Shown here piece by piece: positions 1 to 16,811 of a stretch of DNA of 16,811 nucleotides. Within the stretch, counting starts at the first letter, position 1; every line of letters begins with the position of its first letter. The notes under the pieces were generated by a model. That model made no database searches. It was not told where the DNA came from and saw nothing but the letters and a program-made list of their open reading frames with translations. The translations under genes and the position numbers were made by a program. The DNA lies in the IMG/VR virus record IMGVR_UViG_2579778842_000004. One strand, written 5' to 3'. The stretch is from a virus (Duplodnaviria; Heunggongvirae; Uroviricota; Caudoviricetes).

Positions 1-332
1 AAGATATATTGCTGATTTGAAAAGTTTTTCCCTGTTTTCAGCATGTCTTTCGGCATTATGGTTGCTATTTTTTATTTCAGGTATTAGTTCCTGTTCTACC
101 GCCATTTCGTATCGTTTTTTGCTCTTAGCTGCGTCAAAACTTCCATTAACCTTTGCGTCGTGAAGATATTCTAAATCAGCCTTTGTTATATAAATGTTTT
201 TATCTGACAGGCTACTCAGGTGAATCTGGGAACTTTGCATTTTGAATTTATATAGATCACAATCAAATGTTGCTTCAAGTCGCACATATGGCTCTCCACA
301 TTCTTGTGAATGATAATGTCGTGTTGTACTAC
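1..332. repeat. Terminal direct repeat, left copy (matches 16480-16811)
   Basis: Direct comparison: 1-332 equals 16480-16811 except one substitution (T at 49 vs C at 16528), which is synonymous in the minus-strand ORF. Identity runs to both window edges, so the true repeat may be longer. Confidence 0.95.
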
Positions 333-801: not shown

Positions 802-896
802 TGCGTCACCTTTTACGCTGCGCCTTATTTTGTGATTGAGCCAGGCGGTAAGGCTTCCCGCTTTTCGCCCCGTCGAGCTAGGCTCAATCTATTCAG

Positions 897-2318: not shown

Positions 2319-2427
2319 GCTGCTTGGTGATTTTTACTGATGGCTTATTCGATATTCTGAATCTGTTTGTAGAGTATTGGCTTCAATGCCGCATTGTAGC
2401 TGGTTTCTTCCTAATGCGATTTTTGAT

Positions 2428-2447
2428 TATGTACACCCTTATGTACA
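2428..2447. promoter_or_regulatory. Second pair of ATGTACAC repeats (ttatgtacacccttatgtacacgg)
   Basis: Near-identical to the 2215-2238 pair, about 210 bp away on the other side of the terminator. Confidence 0.3.
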
Positions 2448-2740
2448 CGGTTTTTTCGGGTGCTTTGGTCAGAAGCCATTGCCTACATCCCTCACGATCG
2501 AGGTGTGTAACCATGTTCAGGCTTGTTGTCCTGCGCGCGCGTATTGCTCGTGAAATTGCTGTACCCAATAGTGATGTCCGAAAAAACCTCCGTTCTCACA
2601 TGAAACAGCCATATGCAACTGGTAACTGAACAGACTGGTAGACCGTTCGTTCAGTAAATACCTGATATTTTCGCCAACGAGAAATTGCGTTGGCTGGCAG
2701 GGTGCAAATTTGCACGATGGACTAACCCATTGATTCTTTC

Positions 2741-2765
2741 GAAAACCCCCATTGGGGGAAAAGCC
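2741..2765 (-). terminator. Weak terminator-like hairpin downstream of the PerC-like gene
   Basis: On the minus strand CCCCC-AAU-GGGGG followed by UUUUC; lies about 115 nt past the stop at 2875. Adjacent perfect palindrome gtgcaaatttgcac at 2702-2715. Confidence 0.3.
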
Positions 2766-2874
2766 TAACTCATTGGTTTTCCCACAATCCTCAATTTGAG
2801 GAATGTACCTAAAACCATTTTTATAGCTCCGATCCCTTCAAAGTGAGGGGTAATTTGCCAAAACAGAGAGAGCA

Positions 2875-3162
2875 TTACTGTCTCTGGCAATCTTTATCGC
2901 GATAACGCCTGAAGTACCCTCTCGCTTCCTCATCCATACCAAGAGCCGAATGAGTCCGCTTAACTGCCTGTCTTAAATCTCCGAATCTGTCTGTAGTTGC
3001 TGGTGGGCGTGCCGCCTTACGGATACATTCAGAGCGTCTGTTTGCTGCATGTTCACGTTCTTTATCGCCATCTGCCAGCATCATGACTTCTGCCCATCGT
3101 GCGGCAGCTCTCCGGTATAGCCCTTTTGACTCCAGCTCTTCAGCTTTCCTGTCCCTTATCAT
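2875..3162 (-). CDS. Small basic regulator, PerC/ANR-family-like (tentative)
   Basis: 95 aa, MIRDRKAEELESKGLYRRAAARWAEVMM... matches my recollection of the N-terminal pattern of PerC-type small activators; GAGAGG 6 nt upstream of ATG. Family assignment is from memory, not a search. Confidence 0.55.
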   Translation of the reverse strand: MIRDRKAEELESKGLYRRAAARWAEVMMLADGDKEREHAANRRSECIRKAARPPATTDRFGDLRQAVKRTHSALGMDEEARGYFRRYRDKDCQRQ

Positions 3163-3198
3163 TTCTGCCTCTCAGATTATATAGATAAGCAAAAAGGT

Positions 3199-3319
3199 GT
3201 TGGTTCAGTTGGTTCAGTTGGTTCAATTTGTAAAGATCGTTGTTTTTATTGTGTTTTTTCTGAAATATTGAACCAACATCAACTCATTTTGAACCAACAC
3301 AGCCCAGCTCTGAACCAAC
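3199..3319. repeat. Iteron cluster A: 3 tandem GTTGGTTCA (3199-3225) plus 3 inverted TGAACCAAC at 3269, 3290, 3311 (21-bp phasing)
   Basis: Read directly. The whole block is an imperfect reverse complement of cluster B (9351-9461), including the shared spacer atttgtaaaga. Confidence 0.65.
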
Positions 3320-3373
3320 AACACAGCGATAGCTTTGTGATTGGCCCGTTATTTTCTGGCTGATATTTGAGCG

Positions 3374-3404
3374 TATAACAGTGTTATACAGTGGTATACT
3401 GTAT
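3374..3404. promoter_or_regulatory. Two adjacent palindromes upstream of the RHH gene (candidate operators)
   Basis: TATAACA-g-TGTTATA (3374-3388) and ATACAGT-ggtat-ACTGTAT (3386-3404), overlapping a TATACT -10-like hexamer about 12 nt before the ATG. Confidence 0.4.
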
Positions 3405-3421
3405 GGATATTACTCACTGAT

Positions 3422-3877
3422 ATGGTCTTTGCAATGAGCAAATCTAATCTGGTCGCGTTCCGCATCCCATCTGAATTGCAGGATGAGTTTAATCGGTCTG
3501 TTCTCGCTTCTGGAGGGGATAAAACCTCCTGGCTTGTTGATGCGATTCGCATGAAGCTGGGACAGCCGGAAAAGTCTATTGATTCACGAATGCTTGGGCT
3601 GGTGGAGCGCATGGAAAAAGCTGCTGCGTCGCTTATTGCCGGAAAGCCGAACATCCCACCAAAGCCATATAACGAAACGGCAGTTATAAAGATCATTGCC
3701 GATACCATCCGACAGGGATTTGATAATGGGCGTGTGATAGCTGAACGGATCAATGAAGCAGGCTATCAAACAAAAGCTGGTAAAGCGTGGGATAAAGATA
3801 TTTACAGCGCGTGGAAGCGTCAGGGAAGCAATGCTGAAAAGTTAAAAGCGGTGATTGATTGTAAGGTCAGCGTATAA
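3422..3877 (+). CDS. Ribbon-helix-helix (Arc/MetJ/CopG-like) DNA-binding protein with C-terminal extension
   Basis: N-terminus SNLVAFRIPSELQDEFNRSVLASGGDKTSWLVDAIRMKL fits the beta-strand/helix/helix RHH pattern. No clear SD; alternative start at ATG 3434. Confidence 0.6.
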   Translation: MVFAMSKSNLVAFRIPSELQDEFNRSVLASGGDKTSWLVDAIRMKLGQPEKSIDSRMLGLVERMEKAAASLIAGKPNIPPKPYNETAVIKIIADTIRQGFDNGRVIAERINEAGYQTKAGKAWDKDIYSAWKRQGSNAEKLKAVIDCKVSV

Positions 3878-3956
3878 ACATGAGTGCCCATTGGAAAGCT
3901 GCTTGGGCCAATACCTTTATACACCAGCAGGTGGTGACGATAGGTGAGGATCAGGA

Positions 3957-4178
3957 ATGAAAGGCAGAACGCCACACATTGAACATCAAGCCAACCACTT
4001 CTCGGATGTTCGCAATGAGATGATTGCCATTCGCGGTGATATGCACGGCTTGGAGCGTCGAATTATTGATAAGATTGATGAAAATAGAGATAAGGCCAGT
4101 GAAAATCAAAAGTGGATCATCGGCCTGTTGATTTTATCAATGCTTATCCCGCTACTTATCGCATTGGTCACAAAATGA
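3957..4178 (+). CDS. Small tail-anchored membrane protein (coiled-coil N-terminus, single C-terminal TM)
   Basis: 73 aa; C-terminal WIIGLLILSMLIPLLIALVTK is one hydrophobic helix. Topology resembles XhlA-like or holin-like small proteins, but no family confirmed. Confidence 0.5.
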   Translation: MKGRTPHIEHQANHFSDVRNEMIAIRGDMHGLERRIIDKIDENRDKASENQKWIIGLLILSMLIPLLIALVTK

Positions 4179-4699
4179 ATATCCAATGTGTATGCTGTCG
4201 ATGCTACGCGCACGTACTTGTCGCAAAATATCAGACAAAAGCCAGATTCAGAACGTCGTGATAACCACCAGCACAACAGAGAGGTCATGTAACGCGATTT
4301 ATCACACCAGATACATGTGATTGGTGTACCCGCATAAAACATCGTCATAGCGCGTCCTGTGCGCATATACGCCGATAATCAACACATCACCACCACTCTG
4401 TCTCATGTAGAGAACACTTTTATGGTATCCCCCGCCATCGTGCGCGTACTAGTCGGACGCAGTTGCAAAACTTTTTGCAACTGATACCCCTCGCGCGCGT
4501 ACTTGTCTCGAAATTGGTGTTTTGCTGTGGCAGTGATATCAGAAAAATCTTCCTGTTTCACATAAAGCGGATATGCGCGTACTGTAACGACCCCATCAAC
4601 GGGGGCGGATTTGAAATCCCGACCCAAGCTATGTACCAAATGCCATGTCTTGGATATATGATGATTGCCATTCTAAACAACGCTAAAGGGAGGGTTGGT

Positions 4700-5314
4700 G
4701 TGAGCAGAAAAGATACTAAAGAATTGCTAACTATCTGCATGGTGTACTTTTCAATTTATTTTTGTGCATACATGATAGTCCCAGATGAGTTTGAACATGG
4801 CAGTATTATTTATTCCATAACATTCTATTTTTTAGAGCTAACACCAATTTTGGCTATCCTTTTGGCAATACATATTTATTTTTCCTTAAAAAAAGAATCG
4901 ACTAATTGGGAGAAGGTATGGAGAGACAGAGGATTTCTAACATCACCTAAAGATGATGCATATGAGAGTGATTTTTCAGACTTTATAACAAACTACTACT
5001 CCAGCGAACGATTCAAAAATAGACTGTCTGATGTTTGGGAAACAGCAATGTATTCTATAGGGATTATATTATTGATACTTACTGGTATTGCTCAATATGT
5101 TTTTAACATTGACTTATCATTAAATCCTGAAAATTTAATATCGCCATTGATTTTTGGTGAGATATTGATCTTCTCATTCGGAATTTTCTTGAGTGTTGTT
5201 CTCTGCTCATTATGCAAGCTACTGACTAACAGGTATCCGGGTGAAGCAAGGAGAGCAAGAAAGGCAAATCCATATTATCTTTTATTTCCTAATGGAGACA
5301 GCAGAGATATCTAA
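4700..5314 (+). CDS. AT-rich integral membrane protein, about 4 TM helices, unknown function
   Basis: GTG at 4700 preceded by AAAGGGAGGG (5-nt spacer). Composition drops sharply in GC at about 4690. Four hydrophobic segments (LLTICMVYFSIYFCAYMIV, IIYSITFYFLELTPILAILLAIHIYF, AMYSIGIILLILTGIAQYVF, LISPLIFGEILIFSFGIFLSVVLCSLC). The track's longer start (4463) would include repeat-rich DNA. Confidence 0.6.
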   Translation: MSRKDTKELLTICMVYFSIYFCAYMIVPDEFEHGSIIYSITFYFLELTPILAILLAIHIYFSLKKESTNWEKVWRDRGFLTSPKDDAYESDFSDFITNYYSSERFKNRLSDVWETAMYSIGIILLILTGIAQYVFNIDLSLNPENLISPLIFGEILIFSFGIFLSVVLCSLCKLLTNRYPGEARRARKANPYYLLFPNGDSRDI

Positions 5315-5332
5315 GCCATCCATGGCCATCTG

Positions 5333-7348
5333 TTATTGAGCTTCCTTTTGCGATGCTTGTGCTGCTGTGGTCAGTGATTGTGTGACCGTACTGATCGCTC
5401 TGTCATATGCTGTGCTACCTTTTGGCGTATTTGCCAGACGTAACAAGGCATTTCGTATAACAGGGCTTTCGTATGCCTTCGCTGCTCCGCCTACGGCACC
5501 AGCAGCAGGAACAACAAACGCAGCCGTTTTTAGCATCCCCGCTAATACTGCTGCGTTTATGATGCCACCACCAACTAACAATCCATAAAGCTGCTGACCA
5601 TTTAAGTTTTGAACGTTCGCTTTTGCCGCGTGTCTTGTATCGTTGAGGTATTTAATAACGCCGTCCAGTTCCTTTCCATGTACGCCTTTAAAGAAAGTTG
5701 CTGATTGCTTCCTGTTCCGGTGTAACGCATTAATAAACTTCTCAACACTGATATTTCCAGACGGATCAGTCGCCTTATCTACAGCATTCTGAACTATGGC
5801 TGCTCGTGCGTTTTGCCTACCATTGTCATCCAGAAGCCTGTAAAGCTGAGAACGTTCTGATGGGCTTTGGCTAAAAACGAGTTTTGTTACATCCTCAGGC
5901 GTGGCCTTGCCGCTGGCTATTGCCTTTTGAACGCGCGTTCTTCCCATCATGTCATTGAATTTAGACCATGAGCGATCAACCCTTGCCATATTAATGGCTT
6001 CGTCTGCTCCAAGATTTTTGGCTACGGCTTTTTTCATATCCGCCGTATATGCCTTGTAGATAATATCGCTGGCTTTCTGGAGCGTATCTTTATCAACAGT
6101 GTCAGATGACGCCATAAATCGCTTTCGAAGATCGGTTCTGTTTTCCCTCGCCAGACGCAGGTCATTTGGTCCGCTGGTGATATCGTCTTTAAATTGCTGC
6201 AAGACTTTTACCGCGGCTCTATCCTGAGATTTGCCCGGGCGGCTTAACACGGCAATCTGATTGTCGATAGCTTTTACCGTGTTTGAGAGATCGACAGGGG
6301 TATCCCCCATAGCGTCAATTATGCGGTTATATCGCTTTCCTGCTGCCTCAATGAATTTTTGTTGCCCTTTAGTCGCAGATTCATAAAGCTGTTTATCAGA
6401 AATGCCACCCAGACCATCGCTAAATGTTCTGACTAAATTTTCTCGTGCTTGTTGTTGATTCAGCCGATTCTTACCGGTTCCAAAAAAAGGAACTCTTTCG
6501 CCTAATGTCTGAGCCTGACTCTGCATAAAGGTTTTATCTTTCAGCATGTCACTGGTCATTAACGGTAGGTTTCTTTCCGATGCAAAATCAACAGCGGCTT
6601 TCGCTTCCGGTGCCATATCACCGCGAACGGCCCTCGAAACGGCACTCACTGTATTCTCCAGACCCTTACCAATGCCGCCAATGCCAGCAGAGATTACCGT
6701 TTGTAACGGATCAATATCTTCTCCACCAGCAAGGCTGGTGGCTCCCTGTAGTGCTAAATCTGTAGCTGCTGATTTCCCTATGGCCCCCAGCACCGTTCCG
6801 GCCCTGCCCGCTGGTGTAAACGCCAGCGCATTAGCCAGAAACGATGCCACGTCTTGCGGCGATAAACCCGGCTTGTTCAGAGCATAATCACCGGATGGTA
6901 GGGAAACGATAGTGTTACCCTTCTCATCCTGCCTTAATTTCGCTCCCATGCTCTGAAGAATCTTTTCCTGAGATGCGTCAGAGCCGAAAAGTTGAGACCA
7001 TCGAGCTTTTAGAGCATCCATGCTGAGTGAGGTTAACTCTGGGGCAAGGTCGACATTTTGCAGTCTCTCCATCTCTGGAGTCATTCGGCTTTCGCCTGTT
7101 ATAGCATCGCGCATCGCAGCCCCAAGGCTGGCTCCCTGTTCTGCTGAACGCTCAAGCCCCTCTCTTTGCTGAGTAGCTAACTTTGCATACCCTGACGCAA
7201 GAGAGTTGTCTGCTGGCGATTGCTGAACACCTTGTTGTGTTGGTGCTGACTGACCAGCAAAATACTCATCAATGGCGGTGCCAATATCTTCGGTGCTCGT
7301 ACCATCAGGGAAGGTAAATGTCTTACCGTTTGCAGTTACTTTCATCAT
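5333..7348 (-). CDS. Large (671 aa) Ala/Gln/Gly-rich, largely helical-looking protein with C-terminal hydrophobic segment; function unknown
   Basis: Start overlaps the upstream stop (ATGA at 7348-7345). C-terminal [40 protein letters not shown] is membrane-like. No enzymatic motif recognised. Confidence 0.8.
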
Positions 7349-8736
7349 TCCACCGTAAATTGAATGCCTGATTTTGACGTGTAGCTACCTCCTGCTGATT
7401 GCTGAGTAGCTGGCTGTTGCCTTGATGATTTCTTCCCGCCATTACCGACATTAACGTTATATTGCTGGTTGTAATTGTCGGTATATTGCTGAATGTCGCG
7501 CATTGATTGTTGTAGTGCTTCAGGGCTTGAGAAATCAGGCTTTGGCATACCTTGAAAATACCTATTGGCCTCTGCTTCGGTGTTGATGCCAGATGCCCCC
7601 ATATCTCGGGCTGCCGCAATCCCCTGATTTTGCATTTTGCCCAGGATTCGCTGTGCAGCGTTGTATAGCCTCCTCTCCTCAGCACCAGATGCCCGGCTAC
7701 GAATATCTGCACCAAGAGCAAAAGAACCTGAAGAACCAGTAATACCTGTCATGAAGCCAATATCGTCAATTGATGCGCCAGAAATTGCCTCAAGATCTTT
7801 CTTCATTTCGTAATTCTGCGCATTAGCTGCCGACGTGGCCGGAGCAGCAATAGAGCCAGCTGGAACGCGAACTATGTTCCCCTCATTGTCTATACCTTCG
7901 TAGAACGCGTTAGCACCAGCACCATGAAGTTTCCCGCCTACGGTTACAGTTCTTCCGTCTGCTAGTTGAACTGTGCGCTCATTATTCCCAACCGCCCCTT
8001 TCATTGATGTTCTCTGCATCGCTAAATCCTGACCGCGCATCGTGATGTTCTGTCCTCGTGCTGTTAGCGCCTCGCCAGCCTGATTGCTGCGGATTGTCTC
8101 TGCCAACTTGTCACGCTCAATATCCCGACCTTCCATTTGATCTTTGATATCGAAGTACTTCTCATGGCCGAGAGAAAACAGTGCCAGATTACCTGCGAAG
8201 TGCTGGAAGCCCTGCGGGTCATTAACCTGCATTTCAGCAATAGTTTCTGGAGGGATACCTAAACGACGCATCTCCTTTTCGTTATCCATCATGAACCTGC
8301 CAAATGCGCCCGGACCAAGCGACGAAGCTACCTGTGCTTTAAGCGCCAGATTGCCAAAATCATCCCGCTGGGCGTCATCGACATACCCCATGCCTTTACG
8401 GACTTCCTCAAACTCTTCTGGGAATGCTGTAATAAGATTACGCATCTTCTCCCTGTCGCCGGACGCATAAGCATCTGCATAACCTTTCTGGAATGCCGCT
8501 TTACGCTCCTGCTGTTGCTGCTGCTTATAAATATCAGCAACTCCAGCCAGACCACGAAGACCTGTCAGAGCAACGTTATTTGCACCTGATCGAGCCAGTT
8601 CATTGTTTTCGCGGATCAGACCAAGCGTTGCGTTAATGTCGCTTGCCTTTGGCGCATTCTCATTTTGCGTACCGATGCCAGCCAGAAAACCACCAGAATT
8701 AATACCCTGTTGCCACGTAGCCATTGATTTACCCAC
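7345..8736 (-). CDS. Large (about 460 aa) low-complexity Gly/Ala/Gln/Asn-rich protein; function unknown
   Basis: Long ORF, translationally coupled to the 671-aa gene. Track start is GTG 8736; ATG at 8724 ([12 protein letters not shown]...) is an alternative. Confidence 0.78.
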
Positions 8737-8902
8737 GTCCAGTTAAAGTGTAAGTCAGCGCCTTATCCATTAATCCCCGAGCAATTTCGTGGATCGTTGG
8801 CGCAACTCCTACCTCTGATTTTTTACGCTGCTCCTCCTGAATTTTCTTTATCGCTTCCATTTGTTTCTCACTTATCAATACTGGCTTTACTGAAATAGCC
8901 AT
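8729..8902 (-). CDS. Possible small Lys/Glu-rich ORF (57 aa) heading the large-protein operon
   Basis: ATG at 8902 with AAGGGGG 4 nt upstream (cagttctAAGGGGGcgttATG); stop at 8729-8731, 4 nt before ATG 8724. Not in the ORF track, presumably because it is short. Confidence 0.3.
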
Positions 8903-8997
8903 AACGCCCCCTTAGAACTGTATAAAACAACAGTTATTATAATTTCATAAAACGCAACATTCATCATTGTGATTGCAAAATATGAAACAAATAGCAC

Positions 8998-9030
8998 AAA
9001 AAAATGCCACCGCTCATTAGCTGGTGGCAT
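8998..9030 (-). terminator. Rho-independent terminator closing the primase operon
   Basis: On the minus strand: stem AUGCCACC / GGUGGCAU (9004-9011 / 9023-9030) followed by U7 (complement of A-run 8998-9004). Confidence 0.5.
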
Positions 9031-9350
9031 CGTTCTGTATGTCAGGTTTTGACAGGTTTTTTATGGACTCTAAAAACTATATTTATGGTGTCGCATTACT
9101 CTTCACGGCAGGCGCTTTCCAGTTCTGCCCTTGCTTCTGGCTCCATTGGTAATTTGATTCGAAATCAGCTATGCGGATGGTTTGCTGAACAGGCATAACA
9201 ACTTCTCAGAGGCTGTTTTTTTGAACTACGAAAATTTCGTAGTGCTCACTTTCAAAAACGTCACGCCCTTGTACACAGGATTTTACGAAAGTCTCGTAAA
9301 GCACTCTCTGATGCCAGCCAGATGTTGTGCTCATCAATTCAGTCACGTTG

Positions 9351-9461
9351 TGTTGGTTCAAAATGCCGTGTTGTTGGTTCAGTGTTGGTTCAATAAAAAG
9401 AATAAAATCCTTATAAAACAATACTCTTTACAAATTGAACCAACTGAACCAACTGAACCAA
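9351..9461. repeat. Iteron cluster B: 3 GTTGGTTCA (9351, 9372, 9383) plus 3 tandem TGAACCAAC (9435-9461)
   Basis: Read directly; mirror image of cluster A, immediately downstream of the primase stop (9488). Confidence 0.65.
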
Positions 9462-9487
9462 CACCTTTTCTACGCACATGAAGAAGC

Positions 9488-12250
9488 TCATTCTTCAGAT
9501 GAGTTATAATCTCCTGGCTGGTAATTGAGTACATAAACGTTTATTTGTCGTCCCTGAATACGTGGTGATTTTCTTTGGTATCCACGACCGCTGTTTGGTG
9601 GGGTTAGCATCCCGGCTTTTTTCAACACTTCAGCAAACTGTTTTGCGTTGAAACCACATGCGATCTCCTTTTCAAATGTGGCCGGGAATGTGTAGAAAAT
9701 CATTGGGCTTTCGTCATGTTCTCCACGCTGACGGTATCCGGCTAAATCTTTGATGGGCAAATCTGCCGGGCTGTATGGAAATGGTGCAAAACGGCTAAGC
9801 CCATAGGCATTAAGAAATGCCTCCGTTTGTTCAATAATCTGCTGATGCTCTTTGTTACCTGTGCCGAACTCGCGCAACCATGCGTTATAGCTGTGCTGTA
9901 TCGCATCACGGCATGTCTGAGCATCCCAGCCTGTTACAACCTCGCCTAACAACAATGCGGCCTCCAGAATGGCAAATCGCGCGGCTACACGGTGAACCTG
10001 CTCACCATAATCGGATGGGATCAGGCTTCTCCATCTGCTTTCGCAATCACGAACAGTTTTAATAGCCTGTTGCTGGTGGTCTGCCAGCCATTTAATCCAC
10101 TCACGCCCGGCTGCGCCATGGTGATGCTGGTAAGCGTCTTTCAGTGCGTCTGCGTGCTGTTTTCCGTTCTGGTAATCGTGAAAGCGTACTGCTTTACTCA
10201 ACGGAATATTCAGCAGTCGCACCAGTTGCCCGGCTTTGGTTTTTCGCCCGGAAGTAGCGATAAATGTTTCTAAATCCATTTCTCCGGTGCTGATTGCCAC
10301 TGTGCGCCAGCGTTTTAGATCCCGGTTTCCACCATCTTTAGCGCCTTGCAGTTTCCCTACACCGTTAAATAACGCATAGGCAGACTGTGAAACACTGACA
10401 GGATCAGCGCCCTGACCAACTTCATCAAGCGGCATTAGTCCGTCATTGTGGGCGGCAGCTTCATTTGCCAGCCCCAGCGCGGTTCCGTACCACGTCAGCC
10501 GCAGTAAATCAGGGTTGCCGTATAAGCTGCTCGCCACGTTTGCCGTGGTGGTCTTACCTGCGCTCGACTGCTCATAGAAATGAATGCCGAACCCGTCAGC
10601 GCCCACCAGCCCAATCAATGGCGCTGCCAGTGCTGCGCCGATCCCGGTCATCATTGAATAGTTACCAAAGGCCAGACGCGCCACGTTATCACGCCAGCTT
10701 TTCGCGCTCCCTGAGACGGTATATCCGGCTGCGGCTGAGCTTCTCCCGCTGAACAGCACAGGATTTTCAGGTGTTCCGATGATTTCCCCATCAGGCATGA
10801 TGTACGCTCCGCATTGCCAGCCAGTGGCATGAGCAACACGCCACAATTCACGAGAGCCACTGCGTTGTAGCCAGTCTGCCAGTATTGCTCTGAGGCTGCT
10901 TTTGGTCGTGACATTTACCCCACCAGCTTTCAGGGTGCGCCAGCCTTCACGCTCGCCAATATCAGCCAGCGGGATAGCCGCTGTTGTCGGTATGCCTGCA
11001 CCGAATGCCAGCCATGAGATAATAAGATACTGATCTTTGTCGTCGCGTCCCGTGCCGATAACCTCCAACGGGGAACATAACCAGCTTTCAGCGTTGACGA
11101 TCTCCCCGCTTTCCTTGTCCACCTTCGGCGTTACCCAGAAAACGCCATCTTTGCGGCTCTCAATGTGGGGTTTTAGTGGATCTTTCTCTGGATGGTCAGT
11201 TTTACCGCCCTCAATGGCTTGCAATCGCGGTTTCACGGCTTCCCCTTGAATCTGGTACATCGAATCGTTAAACGCAGCCGTAGCGACTTCCAGCCCGTTT
11301 TGCTGGCGGTAGTCGTCCCAGTCGGCTTTGTAGTCTGTCGGCGGCAGTGCCACCCAGCCAGCCACGGATAAGGCGGCTTTCTCTGCGGCATCTTTGCCCG
11401 TGTTCGCCTGTTCGTCCTGCTGGTGGTCGTTATCTGCGGCAATGATAATCTGCGTGGCTGGATATATCCGGCGCATCACTTCGGCAACGGGTAGCAGGTT
11501 GCCCGCATCAATGGCGCACACTGTCAGCGCGTCAGGGCGCATCAGGTGGACTGATAAAGCGGTTGCCAGCCCCTCGGCAATTAAAACGCTCTGCGGCGAT
11601 TCTGGCGCGTTTACGGCGTGATATGCCCCGCGCTTTGCTGAACCTGTCAGGAGTCGCTTCTCTCCCTGCGGTGTAATGGTTTGCGCTGCTGCCACTGCGC
11701 CGGATTCGTCCACCAGCTCCAGCAATAACGAACCATCCGGCATAACCGGATAGTTAAACCCGGTCAGCCCTTTTGATTGCAGGTAATCAGATTCGCCCTG
11801 TGTGGCACTCTGGCGCATTCCGGCATACAGATGGGCAAACGTAGCCCTTCGCTGCTCTGCGTCCTCTGCTGCCTGTTTCTGGCGCTCCTGCTCACGCTGC
11901 TGGCGGTCAGCTTCCAGTTGCTCCCTTCTATGGCTCGCTGCCACCGGGTCGGATTGCGCTGCCCGGTAATCAATACCCAGAACATCAGCGACAAGAAGCG
12001 CCGCCTCTGTTGTGTCGCAGTTATTTACGCGTTTAATTAAATCCAGCCCATCACCAGCGCCGCACTGATTACAGATGAAGCTACCGCGCCCGTTGTCATC
12101 GAACCGGAATCGATCTTTGCCCCCACATGCAGGGCAGGGAGCATGACGGCGCGGAGAGTCAGGGACATTTATGTTCAGGCAGCCCAGCACATGAGGCCAG
12201 TTGTTTTCAGACGCACTGATAACCTGACGGATAAGATCAATGTTTCGCAT
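9488..12250 (-). CDS. Primase-helicase, P4 alpha-like (N-terminal zinc ribbon, TOPRIM, C-terminal P-loop NTPase)
   Basis: 920 aa. Zinc ribbon CPACGG...FICNQCG; TOPRIM-like VLIAEGLATALS ... IIIAADNDHQ; Walker-A-like FYEQSSAGKTTTANV. GGGGG 5 nt upstream of ATG. Confidence 0.9.
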   Translation of the reverse strand: MRNIDLIRQVISASENNWPHVLGCLNINVPDSPRRHAPCPACGGKDRFRFDDNGRGSFICNQCGAGDGLDLIKRVNNCDTTEAALLVADVLGIDYRAAQSDPVAASHRREQLEADRQQREQERQKQAAEDAEQRRATFAHLYAGMRQSATQGESDYLQSKGLTGFNYPVMPDGSLLLELVDESGAVAAAQTITPQGEKRLLTGSAKRGAYHAVNAPESPQSVLIAEGLATALSVHLMRPDALTVCAIDAGNLLPVAEVMRRIYPATQIIIAADNDHQQDEQANTGKDAAEKAALSVAGWVALPPTDYKADWDDYRQQNGLEVATAAFNDSMYQIQGEAVKPRLQAIEGGKTDHPEKDPLKPHIESRKDGVFWVTPKVDKESGEIVNAESWLCSPLEVIGTGRDDKDQYLIISWLAFGAGIPTTAAIPLADIGEREGWRTLKAGGVNVTTKSSLRAILADWLQRSGSRELWRVAHATGWQCGAYIMPDGEIIGTPENPVLFSGRSSAAAGYTVSGSAKSWRDNVARLAFGNYSMMTGIGAALAAPLIGLVGADGFGIHFYEQSSAGKTTTANVASSLYGNPDLLRLTWYGTALGLANEAAAHNDGLMPLDEVGQGADPVSVSQSAYALFNGVGKLQGAKDGGNRDLKRWRTVAISTGEMDLETFIATSGRKTKAGQLVRLLNIPLSKAVRFHDYQNGKQHADALKDAYQHHHGAAGREWIKWLADHQQQAIKTVRDCESRWRSLIPSDYGEQVHRVAARFAILEAALLLGEVVTGWDAQTCRDAIQHSYNAWLREFGTGNKEHQQIIEQTEAFLNAYGLSRFAPFPYSPADLPIKDLAGYRQRGEHDESPMIFYTFPATFEKEIACGFNAKQFAEVLKKAGMLTPPNSGRGYQRKSPRIQGRQINVYVLNYQPGDYNSSEE

Positions 12251-12262
12251 TCTGGCCCCCGT

Positions 12263-12865
12263 TTAGTGCGTCACTGGTGCTTCTGGGATGCCGTTTTCGT
12301 TTAGTTCGGCAATAAAGCTGTTGTGAAGATCGGCAAGCACTTCTCGCCCAAACGAAGTGAGTGTTCCCTGTTCGACATCGAACATGTTGCTGTAAAAAAT
12401 GATGGCATTCTTTGTTCCGACATCAACACCATATTTCTCGATCATTGCGCCCTCAATGTTGTTTGCCATAGCGAGGCGCTCTGCTACTGGATACAGCGGC
12501 ATGGCGACGATGCCATTGGAATAAACAGAAACCACGGAATGATTGCCACTGTCATCAATAATGCTGACGGTGCCGTTTTCCTTTCTCATTTCATTGATGA
12601 ATGCTGTTGCTATCAGCCAGCGCCACATAATCACGTGATGCTGTGATGTGTAATCGAAATATCCCTGGTTGCCGCCACTGGCAATAGCGAGATGTATAAA
12701 CATGCCTTCATCTGGTTTATCGTCATAATCCCCGGCATCCAGACGATTTACGGCATCAATATATGAGACGGTCTCAACGCGTTCTGTCATGCCATCGTTG
12801 CTGCGGTACATGATGTTTACGCCGTCAGGCGTTGCTTCTGCATGGAAAGTTAAGAAATTATTCAT
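12263..12865 (-). CDS. Hypothetical protein (200 aa)
   Basis: Start moved to ATG 12865 (MNNFLTFHAEATPDG...), which overlaps the stop of the upstream 73-aa gene. The track start 12970 would overlap that gene by 35 codons. Confidence 0.6.
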   Translation of the reverse strand: MNNFLTFHAEATPDGVNIMYRSNDGMTERVETVSYIDAVNRLDAGDYDDKPDEGMFIHLAIASGGNQGYFDYTSQHHVIMWRWLIATAFINEMRKENGTVSIIDDSGNHSVVSVYSNGIVAMPLYPVAERLAMANNIEGAMIEKYGVDVGTKNAIIFYSNMFDVEQGTLTSFGREVLADLHNSFIAELNENGIPEAPVTH

Positions 12866-13079
12866 GTTTCGCCTCGCCTGAATGATTCTGTAACTCATAT
12901 TTGCCCAACAATTCGTCTGCTTCCTGAATAGCTTCTGGTACGCCATTGAGCAGTGACATAACCGCGCCAATCATTAACTTGTCTCTGTTGCTGGGGCTGG
13001 CCCCTTCAAGCCAGAACCCTAAAACAGTCTGAACCTGTTCGATACGACATTGCGCTTCAATGAGCTGGATGTTGGTCAT
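12858..13079 (-). CDS. Small acidic hypothetical protein (73 aa)
   Basis: Member of a chain of stop/start-overlapping small ORFs on the minus strand. Confidence 0.5.
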   Translation of the reverse strand: MTNIQLIEAQCRIEQVQTVLGFWLEGASPSNRDKLMIGAVMSLLNGVPEAIQEADELLGKYELQNHSGEAKHE

Positions 13080-13339
13080 TTCGCACTCTCCGCATCGATT
13101 AAACTGATATCTATCAGAGAGGTAACTTTTTGTAGCCAGCTAGTGATTACTGTCGCCTGTTCCCCTCCCACCGATGGAAGAATCTCATTCATCACATGAA
13201 CCAGACCTGTGCGCGCTCTGGTAAGCCGTTCAGTCGTGCGATCTGCAAGAGTGAATGTGTCTGGATATGGCTCTTCACGGCTCAGCAATGATTCAATTTC
13301 CAGCTCACACGGATGACGATAAATTAAGTTGATATTCAT
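13076..13339 (-). CDS. Small acidic hypothetical protein (87 aa)
   Basis: ATGA overlap with neighbours on both sides. Confidence 0.5.
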   Translation of the reverse strand: MNINLIYRHPCELEIESLLSREEPYPDTFTLADRTTERLTRARTGLVHVMNEILPSVGGEQATVITSWLQKVTSLIDISLIDAESAK

Positions 13340-13530
13340 TTTTCACCCCCAAGAATTACCAGCTCTGCACGGGCATCGTTAACCAAAGATGAGCACGCTT
13401 TAATCGCATCCACGACATCAGTAGCGTCCATTTCTTCAGCCGAAAGACTGACAGCAACCAGGACAGCCGCTGCTTGCTCGATTAATTGAAGTGCGGACGT
13501 AAGGCGAGGGGTATTAATTGAGTTATTCAT
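13336..13530 (-). CDS. Small acidic hypothetical protein (64 aa)
   Basis: ATGA-type overlap with neighbours. Confidence 0.5.
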   Translation of the reverse strand: MNNSINTPRLTSALQLIEQAAAVLVAVSLSAEEMDATDVVDAIKACSSLVNDARAELVILGGEK

Positions 13531-13741
13531 TGGTTTCCCCCGTTTTTACTGGCATTTCGCCACCTTCCAGCAGGAAATGAACGTCACGAACGGCGAGATC
13601 CAATATCGCGAGTAACGCCTTCAGTCTTTCGTCTCGTGAGGGAGAGTTGCTCACCAGAATGTCGTTAATCACTTCTGTCAGTGTGATGATCTGGCTTGTG
13701 CGTTCGAGGGGATCCATATGCACATCGTAGGTTTTAATCAT
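13523..13741 (-). CDS. Small acidic hypothetical protein (72 aa)
   Basis: ATG 13741 with GGAGGTG 6 nt upstream; overlaps the stop of the 13734-13928 ORF (CATGATTAA). In frame with the long 13523-14551 open frame. Confidence 0.5.
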   Translation of the reverse strand: MIKTYDVHMDPLERTSQIITLTEVINDILVSNSPSRDERLKALLAILDLAVRDVHFLLEGGEMPVKTGETNE

Positions 13742-14551
13742 GTGCCACCTCCATGCGGATACGACCAGCAAAAAAGCAGACGTGATCGCGCACCAGAGAA
13801 CGGCGAGCATCGCGTTCAGACTCGGCAGCAATATGATGAATTTTGGCGGTAATTGTCGGGCAATCGCGGCGAACTGCGGCGATAATCCAGATAAATTGCG
13901 GTTTTTGGGTAGGGGTAGTAGCCAGCATGTGGCAGCCTCCTTGATTGATGGTTTATAGCCACCGCCGGAGGTCCTAAGCTCGCTGGCGGTGGACTGTACA
14001 GGGTTAGGACTACTGGCAATCAAGGAAACCAGCCTGACCGAAGTCAGCCCCATACAGCCCACCATTGATAAGGTGTGCGTGTGCGCCGATACAAAAAAAG
14101 ACGCTGGCGCGTCATGTATCGCCTCGATTGCCTGCGGGGTCCTAATCCCGGCACCCGTTTTATGAGGTGCCTTATAACCATAAACCGTGTTGCCGCATAA
14201 CGGCAAGCTCTTTTTTATGGACTCCGAAAACTCACTATTGGAAGCACCAGATGCACAATACATCGCGCTCATTTCGTTAACGTCACGCACGTGGACGAAT
14301 GTTTTTGTGGAGTCACTACACGAGCAGAACAGGTGATCTACGACCAGAAATTCTCTGGCGCAGCCGCTGACCTTCTCAACGCTAACACCATCGACCGTAA
14401 TTTCTGACATAGTTAAGGCATCCGCTCCTACCACCAGCAAATGATAAACTTTGCTTGTATCTGCTGTATTAATGCCTGACTTTGCTGTCATATTGCTGGA
14501 TTTTGGCGACATACCAGCCAGTGAAAATGTCTTCTTCTGGACGGTTAGCAT
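13523..14551 (-). CDS. Long uninterrupted open frame (342 codons); N-terminal about 150 codons look coding, middle section coincides with RNA structures; possibly composite or frameshifted
   Basis: ATG 14551 has GGAGG 7 nt upstream and overlaps the upstream stop (ATGCTAA). No in-frame stop until 13523; a T7 run sits at 14099-14093. Alternative annotation is the two small ORFs listed separately. Confidence 0.3.
13734..13928 (-). CDS. Small basic hypothetical protein (64 aa)
   Basis: ATG 13928 preceded by textbook SD AAGGAGG (13942-13936, 7-nt spacer). The SD lies in the 3' arm of a predicted RNA stem. Confidence 0.45.
   Translation of the reverse strand: MLATTPTQKPQFIWIIAAVRRDCPTITAKIHHIAAESERDARRSLVRDHVCFFAGRIRMEVAHD
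13936..14113 (-). promoter_or_regulatory. Structured RNA leader/attenuator-like region (minus-strand transcript)
   Basis: 5' to 3' on the minus strand: hairpin GACGC-GCCA-GCGUC then U7 (14113-14093); CUGAC-UUCG-GUCAG tetraloop hairpin (14047-14034); 9-bp long-range stem CCUUGAUUG (14025-14017) pairing CAAUCAAGG (13947-13939), which contains the SD of the 13928 ORF and encloses an 8-bp hairpin CCACCGCC/GGCGGUGG (13992-13959). Confidence 0.4.
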
Positions 14552-14727
14552 TTGTTAACCTCCGCGAACTCCTTCATGAAACGCGCCAGCGGTTGTACGC
14601 ATGGCGATTGATACCCGTCGCGATAGAACGTCACTCGGTTGTGAGACACGCTTTCGACAGTAACGAGTGCTCCGTGGGCATCTTTGTAGCGTTTTTGAGG
14701 TTGTGGTGTTCCTGTAGGCTTAAACAT
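14545..14727 (-). CDS. Small hypothetical protein (60 aa)
   Basis: ATG 14727 with GGAGG 6 nt upstream, 4 nt after the AntA-like stop (MFKPTGTPQPQKRYKDAHGALVTVESV...). The track start 14814 would overlap the upstream gene. Confidence 0.5.
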   Translation of the reverse strand: MFKPTGTPQPQKRYKDAHGALVTVESVSHNRVTFYRDGYQSPCVQPLARFMKEFAEVNKC

Positions 14728-15553
14728 GGACCGCCTCCAGACGCTTAGCGAGCCAGCGTTGCGACAGGCGGGTGAGTTCTCCTTTGCGCTGCTCATATTC
14801 CATGCCCATATCAATTAACGTGATATTGGTGCTTTCGAGATATGAGAGGTGCTCAAGTTGTTCTGCGTTCATATGGTCGCGAGGTTCGCCAGAATAGCCA
14901 TTTATCCGCGCCCACTGCTTAGCAGTTAGCCCACCAAGAACGATACGAGAAATCATATTGCTCTCGTTTGTGTAGTGGTGTTGCTGCGTCGTTTTCCCCT
15001 GCTCGGCACGGGCCATATTCAGCGCATCGCACATTGGCTTAAAGTTGTTTGCGGCACTGATACGGGCTTTTAGCTGGCGACGATAGCGGGCGGCGATTTC
15101 AGGAACGCTACGCTGTAATTCTTCCTCGCACTGGATGAAATAACGGCGGATAGCGCGCCCCTGATCATTGCGTTCGATCATTGCCAGTTCTTTCGCCATT
15201 CCGACACTTAACAGATAGTCTTTGCCGGGTCTGCCAGAGTGCTTAATCTTGCTGTAAGCCGTGCCATTCGGGCTTTTCCCCAAATTTGGGGAAATTGTTT
15301 TATGGACTGAGTAATCGTGCCCAATGGTGAAGTCATATTCAGAGATGCGATCAGTGATCCATGTAGAGAAGTCTTTTCCCACGCCCAACGCTTTGTGTAA
15401 CGCTTTTGCGCTAACAATATTGGTTTCACGCCCACCGATATGACCAGGAATAACCGGGACAATTGCGGCAAATTCATTACCGTTAATTGTGCCCAGAGAG
15501 GCGTTCAGATGAGGGGCGGCCTCAGAAATTAATCTGCTTTTTTCGATGTTCAT
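14720..15553 (-). CDS. Phage antirepressor-like protein (AntA-type N-terminal domain)
   Basis: 277 aa; N-terminal segment ...NIVSAKALHKALGVGKDFSTWITDRISEYDFTIGHDY... matches the AntA/Bro-type signature as I recall it; GGAGA 7 nt upstream. Confidence 0.7.
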   Translation of the reverse strand: MNIEKSRLISEAAPHLNASLGTINGNEFAAIVPVIPGHIGGRETNIVSAKALHKALGVGKDFSTWITDRISEYDFTIGHDYSVHKTISPNLGKSPNGTAYSKIKHSGRPGKDYLLSVGMAKELAMIERNDQGRAIRRYFIQCEEELQRSVPEIAARYRRQLKARISAANNFKPMCDALNMARAEQGKTTQQHHYTNESNMISRIVLGGLTAKQWARINGYSGEPRDHMNAEQLEHLSYLESTNITLIDMGMEYEQRKGELTRLSQRWLAKRLEAVHV

Positions 15554-15565
15554 TTTCAGTCTCCG

Positions 15566-15997
15566 TTAGGCGGCGTTAAACGCGTTCGGGTAGAGTTTCA
15601 GAATGTCGGCAATTTCCTGCTGAGAAAGTCCGTTGTGATCATTTATGTTCGCAAGATGGTTAACATGAGTGATCACTTTCAGAACATCACCACGGCAGGA
15701 GAAACGGTAGCGAAGGTGTGTTCCGATACCATCAGGATTCTTTTCGTCGATACGCTCCAGAGTGATTCCAAGCTGGCGTTCTAACTCTGTTGCATAGTTA
15801 CGACCAGAAGACAGACGGCAGTAGCGAAGAATGTCATTTTCTGTCCATCCCTCTATACCAGTACGCAGCATATAGACTCTGGCACGATGCTTTTTCGGTG
15901 TGCGCTTTGGTTCTTGAAGGGATTTTGTAAGGGGCGTAACATCAGATACGCGAATATCTGAATTAGCCGCCTGTAATGGGCGGTTTTTCTTTTCCAT
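15566..15997 (-). CDS. Hypothetical protein (143 aa), translationally coupled to the AlpA-like gene
   Basis: ATG overlaps the AlpA-like stop (TGATG); AAGGTGG 5 nt upstream. Confidence 0.6.
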   Translation of the reverse strand: MEKKNRPLQAANSDIRVSDVTPLTKSLQEPKRTPKKHRARVYMLRTGIEGWTENDILRYCRLSSGRNYATELERQLGITLERIDEKNPDGIGTHLRYRFSCRGDVLKVITHVNHLANINDHNGLSQQEIADILKLYPNAFNAA

Positions 15998-16200
15998 CAG
16001 GCCACCTTCCCGCGGCGTTCTGCCAGCCAGTTGTGAATCTCAACCGCATCAAACGCAGTTATTTTTTCTCCCAGCTTTACCGGACGTGGTAGTGAACCGT
16101 TTCTTACTTTACGGTCGATGGTGGATACACTAACGCCCAGCAATTCAGCCAGGCGGAAGCGTCTGATATAGCCTTTTGTAGGAATAGTGTCGGTGTTCAT
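15997..16200 (-). CDS. alpA: AlpA-family / excisionase-type helix-turn-helix regulator
   Basis: 67 aa; RFRLAELLGVSVSTIDRKVRNGSLPRPVKLGEKITAFDAVEIHNWL fits the AlpA/Xis HTH pattern; first gene of the long minus-strand operon. Confidence 0.75.
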   Translation of the reverse strand: MNTDTIPTKGYIRRFRLAELLGVSVSTIDRKVRNGSLPRPVKLGEKITAFDAVEIHNWLAERRGKVA

Positions 16201-16204
16201 GCTT

Positions 16205-16259
16205 CCCGTAACCTCTTAGCGATAGTTGTTGCTTCGTTACGGGAGGAAGTATCTGTACA
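16205..16259 (-). promoter_or_regulatory. Leader of the AlpA-like gene: 8-bp inverted repeat around the SD plus one TGTACA motif
   Basis: CCCGTAAC (16205-16212) and GTTACGGG (16236-16243) separated by 23 nt; AAGAGG lies at the loop/stem junction; tgtaca at 16254-16259. Confidence 0.35.
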
Positions 16260-16270
16260 TATATGAACAA

Positions 16271-16298
16271 TAAAAAGGCACAGTAATGATACTGTGCC
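16271..16298 (-). terminator. Rho-independent terminator downstream of gene X
   Basis: Minus strand: stem GGCACAGU / ACUGUGCC (16298-16291 / 16284-16277), 6-nt loop, then U5 (complement of A-run 16272-16276); 17 nt after the stop at 16315. Confidence 0.55.
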
Positions 16299-16314
16299 TG
16301 AATAGTTAGCTACT

Positions 16315-16811
16315 CTACCCCTTACCGTTGGCGGCAGCACGTAAGTGTCTCAAAATCACATCTTCATTTGTGATTGCTAACGGTGGAATTTCGTCTTTAT
16401 GAGCCACTATGCAATCCCGCCACTTCTCAGGGCTTATTTCTTTCTTTTTGCCACGGCATTCATCAGGATACTTTGACAAAAGATATATTGCTGATTTGAA
16501 AAGTTTTTCCCTGTTTTCAGCATGTCTCTCGGCATTATGGTTGCTATTTTTTATTTCAGGTATTAGTTCCTGTTCTACCGCCATTTCGTATCGTTTTTTG
16601 CTCTTAGCTGCGTCAAAACTTCCATTAACCTTTGCGTCGTGAAGATATTCTAAATCAGCCTTTGTTATATAAATGTTTTTATCTGACAGGCTACTCAGGT
16701 GAATCTGGGAACTTTGCATTTTGAATTTATATAGATCACAATCAAATGTTGCTTCAAGTCGCACATATGGCTCTCCACATTCTTGTGAATGATAATGTCG
16801 TGTTGTACTAC
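16315..16811 (-). CDS. Hypothetical AT-rich protein ('gene X'), 3' part; 5' end runs off the window end
   Basis: Frame is open from the window end to the stop at 16315. The last 54 codons (LSKYPDECRGKKKEISPEKWRDCIVAHKDEIPPLAITNEDVILRHLRAAANGKG) are unique; the rest duplicates 1-332 in the same frame. Confidence 0.6.
   Translation of the reverse strand, partial: STTRHYHSQECGEPYVRLEATFDCDLYKFKMQSSQIHLSSLSDKNIYITKADLEYLHDAKVNGSFDAAKSKKRYEMAVEQELIPEIKNSNHNAERHAENREKLFKSAIYLLSKYPDECRGKKKEISPEKWRDCIVAHKDEIPPLAITNEDVILRHLRAAANGKG
16480..16811. repeat. Terminal direct repeat, right copy (matches 1-332)
   Basis: See left copy; offset between copies is 16479 bp. Confidence 0.95.

Follow-up and report, generated by a model that had tools for sequence, protein, structure and literature searches.

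When three short genes lie together on one strand of a mobile element, do they form a single system, or are they separate passengers that share a neighbourhood? The question is raised by a 16,811-nt stretch of viral DNA (IMG/VR record IMGVR_UViG_2579778842_000004; "the window" below always means this whole stretch), in which three open reading frames (ORFs) occupy positions 3,422 to 5,314 of the plus strand. An earlier note, made from the sequence alone, took them for one module, consisting of a ribbon-helix-helix (RHH) protein, a tail-anchored protein and an AT-rich protein with four transmembrane (TM) segments, and proposed that the module acts in exclusion or abortive infection (Abi). The reading that we favour, and that we regard as likely, is that the region is the cargo end of a phage-inducible chromosomal island (PICI) of the EcCIMP1 type, and that a SieA-family exclusion protein, a Mnt-like regulator and a 73-aa cargo gene are carried there as three independent units. 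Homology, synteny, mosaic structure, predicted topology and the conservation of an operator form its basis; a block to DNA injection, autoregulation and expression from a conserved platform are what we infer. The features concerned are these:

3374–3404, no strand: two overlapping palindromes, putative operator of the RHH-like protein, 30–60 bp upstream of its gene
3434–3877, plus strand: 147-aa protein of DNA-binding type with a Mnt-like N-terminus (probable RHH) and a helical C-terminal domain; slot A
3957–4178, plus strand: 73-aa membrane protein, predicted from hydropathy to be tail-anchored; slot B
4198–4699, plus strand: conserved non-coding platform (490 bp) with repeated GCGCGTACTNGTC motifs, a palindrome (4460–4483) and the ribosome-binding site AAAGGGAGGG
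4700–5314, plus strand: 204-aa protein with four helices, predicted to lie in the inner membrane and most likely a divergent homologue of SieA; slot C

A SieA-like protein among three separable genes

Much of the earlier description holds. The three ORFs exist (3434–3877, 3957–4178 and 4700–5314), and the RefSeq annotation of an identical island in E. coli UMNK88 confirms that they are the only plus-strand genes of the unit. They lie between two clusters of iterons (3192–3278 and 9383–9469) and converge on the operon for large proteins, identified here as gp16/gp20-like, with an 18-bp gap (5315–5332) separating the stop codons. The RHH-like and 73-aa genes are spaced by 79 nt, and a gap of about 520 bp precedes the membrane-protein gene. 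By hydropathy the second protein has a single C-terminal hydrophobic segment (residues ~53–72), as expected of a tail-anchored protein, and the third has four such segments, matched by four long helices in its AlphaFold2 (AF2) model. The last gene is indeed AT-rich, with 33.2% GC (30.7% at third codon positions) versus 47.2% for the window, and its proposed separate acquisition is supported by the homology between islands, which ends 1–2 nt past its start codon; other islands carry other ORFs beyond that point.

The proposal that an RHH regulator governs all three genes as a single system is not supported. In a set of 5,426 complete E. coli genomes, the RHH-like gene occurs in 361, the 73-aa gene in 169 and the SieA-like gene in 103, and each also occurs on its own. 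About 550 genomes (~10%) match at least part of the region, usually the 490-bp platform; in a sampled ranking about one third of the genomes match the platform alone, and every combination of genes was seen. Because the genome counts differ, the slots are swapped singly (the SieA-like gene, for example, is replaced by other ORFs in other islands) and the RHH-like gene stands elsewhere beside unrelated cargo, the three plus-strand genes are independent, separately swappable cargo units and not one system. Nothing speaks for abortive infection or toxicity. Searches of Pfam, NCBIfam and PADLOC left all three proteins without a significant match, and in PADLOC-DB there was no match at E <= 1. The suggestion of an exclusion function fares differently at its two levels, being unsupported for the three genes as a system and supported for the third gene, which encodes a remote SieA homologue at the sieA position next to gene 16. 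Likewise, the statement that no family could be named has been superseded for this gene and still stands for the 73-aa protein.

The start of the third gene is taken to be the GTG at 4700, which is the RefSeq choice and has the strong ribosome-binding site AAAGGGAGGG ahead of it; an ATG upstream at 4658 is disfavoured because a 2-nt indel in other islands with the SieA-like gene breaks the longer frame. In the AF2 model of the 204-aa product (mean predicted local distance difference test score 85) the helices span residues 3–30, 36–66, 105–141 and 150–176. A search of PHROGs returned a single match, "superinfection exclusion SieA-like" (E 2.5e-4), and 33 of the 36 aligned family members match the same PHROG. 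BLASTP gives 30% identity to P22 SieA over 108 aa (residues 82–183, E 2e-8) and 34% to the type B SieA of prophage HS1 over 118 aa (residues 80–188, E 2e-9), the latter alignment including NRYPGEAR..K, while hhalign of the SieA-like subfamily against P22 SieA reports a probability of 95.2% (E 2.6e-8). A profile search of 1.84 billion representative proteins yielded 42 relatives, and an alignment of 32 relatives with P22 and HS1 SieA brings out two common motifs, (Y/F)SSExxxNRxSD and CKLLTGRYPGEAxxxRK, with N107 and R108 invariant. The SieA family is described as having a conserved cytoplasmic motif, FxRYPxEAxxFNK (PMC10883804); here it reads TNRYPGEARRARK, with R, Y, P, E, A and K kept at six of the nine specified positions, and it lies past the last helix in a K/R-rich tail that is predicted to be cytoplasmic. 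SieA types B and C likewise have four helices, K/R-rich cytoplasmic loops and a cytoplasmic motif, and HS1 SieA has been found by experiment to exclude P22-like phages (PMC10883804).

The low GC content has its parallel in the same family, as sieA has 33.7% GC in P22 (genome 47.1%) and 36.3% in HS1 (47.5%); AT-richness is therefore a trait of the SieA family and not a peculiarity of the island copy. The closest relatives of the protein come from Citrobacter freundii (51% identity), Serratia fonticola (38%), Providencia and Proteus (33%) and IMG/VR contigs (33–37%). Those relatives whose surroundings were examined belong to P22-like prophages, where their genes lie directly downstream of mnt and converge on gene 16, with gp20, gp7, gp14 and coat/tailspike genes around them. 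This clade is about as distant from types A and B as these are from each other; type C as published (Providencia, Morganella, Proteus), compared here by its description only, may be its kin. A scan of species-representative genomes for SieA-like relatives returned none, and the SieA profile matches none of the small ORFs of phage N7 or of a P22-like prophage from Citrobacter.

The layout around the gene resembles that of P22. In P22, gene 20 and gene 16 are followed on the opposite strand by sieA, 23 bp from gene 16, then by a gap that holds the sieA promoter and the mnt terminator, and then by orf59a and mnt. The window presents the mirror image of this order: Mnt-like gene, small ORF, 520-bp gap, membrane-protein gene, 18-bp gap, gp16-like gene and gp20-like gene, the last two being:

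5333–7348, minus strand: ejection protein of the P22 gp16 family, convergent with the SieA-like gene
7345–8736, minus strand: ejection protein of the P22 gp20 family, 63% identical to P22 gp20 (Pfam Inj_translocase, 1.3e-83)

The gp16-like protein shares 30% identity with P22 gp16, 70% with its counterpart in E. coli phage N7 and 78% with the one in the Citrobacter prophage. Taken together, the 204-aa protein shows the sequence homology, the predicted topology within the range of three to four TM segments and the gene position that characterise SieA (Hofer 1995; Leavitt et al. 2024, PMC10883804), and it is most likely a divergent member of that family: a small multi-pass protein of the inner membrane with NRxSD and RYPGEA..K motifs, four predicted helices as in types B and C, and an AT-rich, moron-type gene that adjoins and converges on gene 16 downstream of a Mnt-type gene. 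It differs from types A and B in being 30–34% identical to them over the C-terminal half and in forming a separate clade with the proteins of Citrobacter, Serratia and Providencia/Proteus. Its gene also differs in lying in a satellite, all of the cases in PMC10883804 being prophages, and in being placed behind a shared cassette platform.

The platform, the regulator and their exchangeable slots

The platform that precedes the SieA-like gene is the most widespread part of the region. Its copies are 96–99% identical and differ by 1-nt indels, for which reason a coding function was rejected. It matches no Rfam family and no phage DNA, and RNA folding shows no excess on either strand (z 0.09 and -0.56). 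Within it are three copies of GCGCGTACTNGTC and the palindrome at 4460–4483, the centre of which varies while the arms are constant. A segment of 85 nt (4492–4576) has a paralogue, 69% identical, at 2534–2616 near attP, both copies starting with CGCGCGCGTA(C/T)T, and the same CGCG motif recurs in a Serratia island (locus L011, 9780–9870) between the iterons and the RHH-like operator. These motifs look like protein-binding sites for a regulator.

At its downstream end, the homology between islands spans the ribosome-binding site and the GTG and then breaks off 1–2 bases later (junction 4685–4704). In different islands, three unrelated ORFs are read from this same GTG, namely the SieA-like gene, one for a multi-pass membrane protein of ~115 aa and one for a signal-peptide protein of ~131 aa, a homologue of which occupies this position in a Serratia island. 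For two of the three ORFs RefSeq uses an upstream ATG inside the platform, which gives the products a spurious "MMIAILNNAKGRVGV" leader. The platform thus appears to supply a ribosome-binding site and a GTG to exchangeable cassettes for envelope proteins that are swapped from codon 2 onwards, and would be the source of their expression. Because all three occupants of slot C are envelope proteins, this slot may be a locus specialised for exclusion functions at the level of entry. In EcCIMP1 the slot next to gp16 holds a gene for a predicted lipoprotein of 232 aa (lipobox LLAGC; 5632–6330, minus strand, of the EcCIMP1 locus L029), which is a candidate for the unexplained superinfection protection conferred by that island.

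Slot B, between ~3860 and 4197, is exchangeable in a similar manner. Other islands carry there an AbiD gene on the opposite strand (Pfam Abi_2, 2e-52; PADLOC AbiD, 7e-58), or a CapP-like ImmA/IrrE peptidase gene together with a 125-aa gene, with the neighbours unchanged. The 73-aa protein found in the window matches phrog_6324, of unknown function (5e-11), and its family comprises 23 clusters drawn only from E. coli or metagenome contigs; tblastn against 50,697 phage genomes produced just four weak matches in Klebsiella phages. It was rejected as a relative of P22 orf59a, to which it has no similarity, and the small ORFs of phage N7 and the Citrobacter prophage were likewise rejected. The earlier note had named homology to lysis proteins as a finding that would count against its proposal; here the 73-aa protein gives a holin PHROG at E 0.014 alone, and the island has no endolysin gene. 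Since slot B elsewhere carries AbiD or ImmA/IrrE genes, our best guess is that the 73-aa protein has an anti-phage or envelope role.

Exchange of unrelated anti-phage genes between conserved flanks is familiar from the defence hotspots of satellites and prophages (P2/P4, Rousset et al. 2022; the PICI accessory region downstream of pri, PMC11364771), and the AbiD and CapP-like ImmA/IrrE genes among the alternatives here fit that pattern. The present region differs from those hotspots in having three adjacent slots, one of which exchanges ORFs exactly at a shared GTG behind a non-coding platform, and in that the known occupants of this platform slot are all envelope proteins.

The occupant of slot A is read from the ATG at 3434, as every homologue begins with MSKSN. 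Of the earlier description of this product as an RHH protein with palindromic operators of its own, the palindromes stand: TATAACA-G-TGTTATA (3374–3388) overlaps ATACAGT-N5-ACTGTAT (3386–3404), both are perfect, and the arms are conserved around variable centres in Serratia L011 and Klebsiella L013. The exact palindrome core occurs once in each of 10 loci, all with the RHH-like gene, and not at all in loci without it, while two Klebsiella loci with the gene have a variant with one mismatch. The palindromes were rejected as LexA boxes, the spacing ACAG-N7-CTGT being at odds with CTGT-N8-ACAG, and as the P22 Mnt operator (Omnt), which is unrelated in sequence. The RHH fold itself is less firm, and we call it probable. 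BLASTP against Mnt gives a weak N-terminal match (E 1e-3 over 37 aa) whose register agrees with the DNA-binding strand, and the label "Arc-like DNA binding domain protein" is attached to a homologue by one database source. In the AF2 monomer, an unstructured segment (residues 1–12) precedes helices at residues 13–25 and 30–41, and there is a small, confidently modelled helical C-terminal domain resembling helix-turn-helix (HTH) folds. Foldseek of the model against the PDB gave no match at E <= 1e-3, a profile search of PDB sequences gave none, and neither did tblastn against the same phage genomes at E 1.

The family is conserved across Enterobacterales, where it stands beside unrelated cargo. 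Because the conserved palindromic putative operator is present only where the RHH-like gene is present, autoregulation suggests itself, and the protein is probably a Mnt-like, autoregulated DNA-binding regulator. It resembles P22 Mnt (immI; Arc/MetJ-type RHH) in relative position and orientation as the first gene of a unit that ends in sieA, in the palindromic operator within its own promoter region and in the weak N-terminal similarity. It differs in length (147 aa versus 83 aa), owing to an extra helical C-terminal domain, as well as in its operator, in having PerC as its divergent neighbour with no adjacent arc/ant, and in giving no match to Pfam Arc/Mnt. At the same position EcCIMP1 and the O111 strain 11128 have AlpA_1, which in EcCIMP1 is an excisionase for the helper phage (PMC11773190). 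Because this excisionase occupies slot A in EcCIMP1, the slot may more generally accommodate regulators that act on a helper.

The island and its remaining features

What kind of element carries this cargo? UMNK88 and three porcine enterotoxigenic E. coli strains carry an island with 100% identity to the window, and in the UMNK88 chromosome the 16.5-kb element is inserted between yicC and dinD. The window aligns to that island in two pieces, 2353–16811 with one island end and 1–2365 with the other; the 13-bp overlap is the attachment (att) repeat or core TATTCTGAATCTG at 2353–2365, between int and PerC, and window positions 1–332 are repeated at 16480–16811. Because of the two-piece mapping, the 13-bp overlap and this 332-bp terminal redundancy, we read the window as the excised circular form: it is a circular permutation of the 16.5-kb island. 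Its genes encode an integrase, a small AlpA-type HTH regulator, an AntA/B antirepressor, DUF4222 and Ash proteins, a 920-aa TOPRIM-DUF927 primase, the gp20-type and gp16-type proteins and a PerC-family protein. It has the integrase, AlpA-type regulator, primase-replicase, size of 10–20 kb and flanking att repeats of a PICI, and no capsid, tail or lysis genes.

By a gene-for-gene comparison, content and order agree with those of EcCIMP1, a PICI that E. coli MP1 carries (Pick et al. 2025, PMC11773190) and that the P22-like phage Kapi1 induces and transduces (PMC11773190), and on this ground the island is assigned to the EcCIMP1-like PICI satellites. The two share the island gene set and the 490-bp platform, which is 95.8% identical. 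EcCIMP1 differs in being 20 kb long and located at tRNA-Thr (here 16.5 kb at yicC/dinD), in having AlpA_1 where the window has the RHH-like gene, in its full gp14-gp7-gp20-gp16 set, in the lipoprotein gene beside gp16, and in having neither the SieA-like gene nor the 73-aa gene.

Three further features frame the region:

2875–3162, minus strand: PerC/ANR-family regulator (Pfam PerC, 2.6e-33), divergent from the plus-strand genes, at the end of the accessory region
3192–3278, no strand: iteron cluster 1, with GTTGGTTCA three times followed by copies of TGAACCAAC to 3320; inverted partner of 9383–9469
9383–9469, no strand: iteron cluster 2, upstream of the primase gene; inverted copy of 3192–3278

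The PerC-family protein also matches NCBIfam ANR_neg_reg (AraC negative regulator) at 5.5e-6, below the curated cutoff, and this match fits the repressor activity of its EcCIMP1 homologue, which silences LEE1 (PMC11773190). The two iteron clusters form a pair of inverted repeats of 88 bp with 85% identity; lying 6.1 kb apart, they bracket the whole block of accessory and ejection-protein genes, and the same iterons are present in the Serratia and Klebsiella relatives. Phage P4 has paired replication sites, ori and crr. By analogy, the iteron clusters are probably primase-binding replication sites of an ori/crr-like kind.

Of the ejection-protein set, gp20 and gp16 alone remain in this island, the homologues of gp14 (DUF2824) and gp7 having been lost at window positions 8729–8902 to 8736. 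Relatives that include Serratia L012 and EcCIMP1 keep gp14 and gp7 between a small 57-aa ORF and gp20, and two IMG/VR islands (L022 and L024) retain at least a gp7 homologue. In the Klebsiella metagenome loci L013/L014 (12511–16578), the RHH-like gene is 78% identical, and the place of gp20/gp16 is taken by a tape-measure-like protein of 903 aa (TMP_3) and a protein with an Imm_superinfect domain. The pairing of DNA-delivery proteins with exclusion proteins may be a recurring theme.

Outside this block, Rfam identifies a C4 antisense RNA at 13982–14069 (minus strand; 80 bits, E 1e-14) and an IsrK Hfq-binding RNA at 14094–14170 (minus strand; 63 bits, E 1e-11). The two lie back to back, inside or over a 342-aa Ash-family ORF and upstream of the AntA/B antirepressor gene, an arrangement that looks like an immI antisense control module of the P1/P7 type in a satellite. 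An int-alpA RNA at 822–888 (minus strand; 60.6 bits, E 1e-10) closely follows the integrase gene.

Weighing the explanations

It is informative to spell out how the favoured reading would work. P22 SieA blocks DNA injection by P22-like phages, and mutants that escape it map to gp16 and gp20 (PMC10883804). By extension, the 204-aa protein made by a resident island would most likely keep superinfecting P22-like phages from delivering their DNA. It would disturb the gp20/gp16 conduit at the inner membrane, and its NRxSD and RYPGEA motifs would be exposed to the cytoplasm. The 147-aa regulator would most likely bind the palindromes upstream of its own gene and control the plus-strand transcription unit. 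Host and satellite would then be shielded from superinfecting P22-like phages, including probable helpers, while an established helper prophage would remain inducible and able to package the island. A phenotype of this kind is reported for EcCIMP1, whose effect is confined to protection against superinfection and leaves helper induction unaffected (PMC11773190).

Several observations weigh against this reading. Identity to functional SieA proteins is only 30–34% and confined to the C-terminal ~110 residues, the N-terminal half being unalignable with types A or B, and at three of the nine specified motif positions F, F and N have given way to T, A and R. A tblastn search of the 50,697 phage genomes with the SieA-like protein did not retrieve SieA even at E 10, and Foldseek of its model against viral models (BFVD) did not return SieA. 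The RHH assignment of the regulator is weak: hhalign gives E 1.4e-3 but a probability of 17%, the protein has no Pfam match, and AF2 confidence is low over residues 1–70. A search for sigma-70 promoters brought up nothing convincing for the three genes, the best candidate by eye being GTACCA-18-TATGAT at 4633–4662. Finally, EcCIMP1 protects against Kapi1 superinfection yet lacks a SieA-like gene, from which it follows that the SieA-like gene is not the general cause of that protection.

How do the alternatives compare? One is that the three genes form a co-regulated, membrane-acting Abi or toxin system, with the RHH protein as sensor or repressor and the two membrane proteins as effectors. Their shared strand, the short gaps with no predicted terminator between the genes, the operator upstream of the first, the presence of two membrane proteins and the ability of the neighbouring slot to hold AbiD would all suit such a system, but the counts of 361, 169 and 103 genomes, the occurrence of each gene without the others and the absence of any PADLOC match make it very improbable; furthermore, the third gene's own 490-bp platform also serves unrelated ORFs, and homologues of this gene act alone in P22 and HS1 (PMC10883804). 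A narrower version, in which the RHH-like and 73-aa proteins are a toxin-antitoxin (TA)-like pair of antitoxin and membrane-disrupting toxin for island stabilisation or the killing of infected cells, strikes us as unlikely. Gene order and the 79-nt spacing are those of a type II TA pair, the first protein is RHH-like, with non-significant Foldseek matches (E 3.8–9.5) to VapB-type RHH antitoxins, and the small tail-anchored protein has the weak holin-PHROG match at E 0.014. However, the two genes are not inherited together (361 versus 169 genomes), the RHH-like family is conserved across genera in which the 73-aa family was not found, in other islands the next gene after the RHH-like one is AbiD or ImmA/IrrE, on the opposite strand, and the C-terminal domain of the RHH-like protein resembles HTH folds and not a toxin-binding tail.

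It is also worth considering that the SieA-like protein serves transfer of the satellite itself, by being matched to the satellite's own gp20/gp16 so that helper virions are shut out of SieA-bearing cells and particles loaded with the satellite's ejection proteins are let in, or by acting in particle release. The SieA-like gene always adjoins satellite-encoded gp16/gp20, escape from SieA maps to the C-termini of gp16 and gp20 (PMC10883804), relatives of the island carry the full gp14-gp7-gp20-gp16 set, and Klebsiella relatives have a tape-measure-like protein and Imm_superinfect at the same place. On the other hand, one SieA-like allele is paired with at least two forms of gp16 (671 aa and 701 aa), the SieA proteins of P22 and HS1 act on phages whose E-proteins differ widely, a breadth that speaks against fine matching (PMC10883804), and the island has lost gp7 and gp14; we give this possibility little weight. 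Nor do we believe that a P22-like phage recombined into the island and left an inert block there, with genes that are no longer expressed or useful, an explanation that is most improbable even though gp7 and gp14 are missing, clear promoters are absent and some relatives have insertion sequences or a truncated gp16. The three ORFs are intact and 95–100% conserved across 103–361 genomes from a wide range of lineages and hosts, with conservation dropping to 80–90% in just 76 copies of the 73-aa gene and 3 of the RHH gene; the SieA-like family keeps its invariant motif residues at 33–51% identity, and the cassette junction keeps the ribosome-binding site and start codon exactly.

The favoured reading, a SieA-family exclusion protein carried as independent cargo of a PICI, would add to what is known of SieA in several ways. 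The mechanism of SieA was characterised only in 2024, and the cases detailed there are all in P22-like prophages (PMC10883804). The protein described here would stand for one more divergent SieA clade, and it is encoded by a PICI satellite instead of a P22-like prophage; its gene adjoins satellite copies of SieA's proposed targets and lies behind a cassette platform that is precise to the start codon. Natural combinations of SieA, gp16 and gp20 are thereby available for finding what SieA recognises. Because ORFs for envelope proteins are swapped exactly at the start codon, the platform slot is also a practical place to look for new exclusion proteins, and current defence-finder tools miss all of it.

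One can go further and imagine that the SieA-type block, the satellite's gp20/gp16 and the cassette platform together make up a dedicated and rapidly exchangeable, gp16-proximal "entry-control" locus of satellites that parasitise P22-like phages. We offer this as speculation to which we attach a low probability; if true, the same logic of entry control might extend to the Klebsiella arrangement of a tape-measure protein plus Imm_superinfect. More concretely, the SieA-like gene is a candidate for a means by which a satellite may shield its host from P22-like phages, probably including its own helpers.

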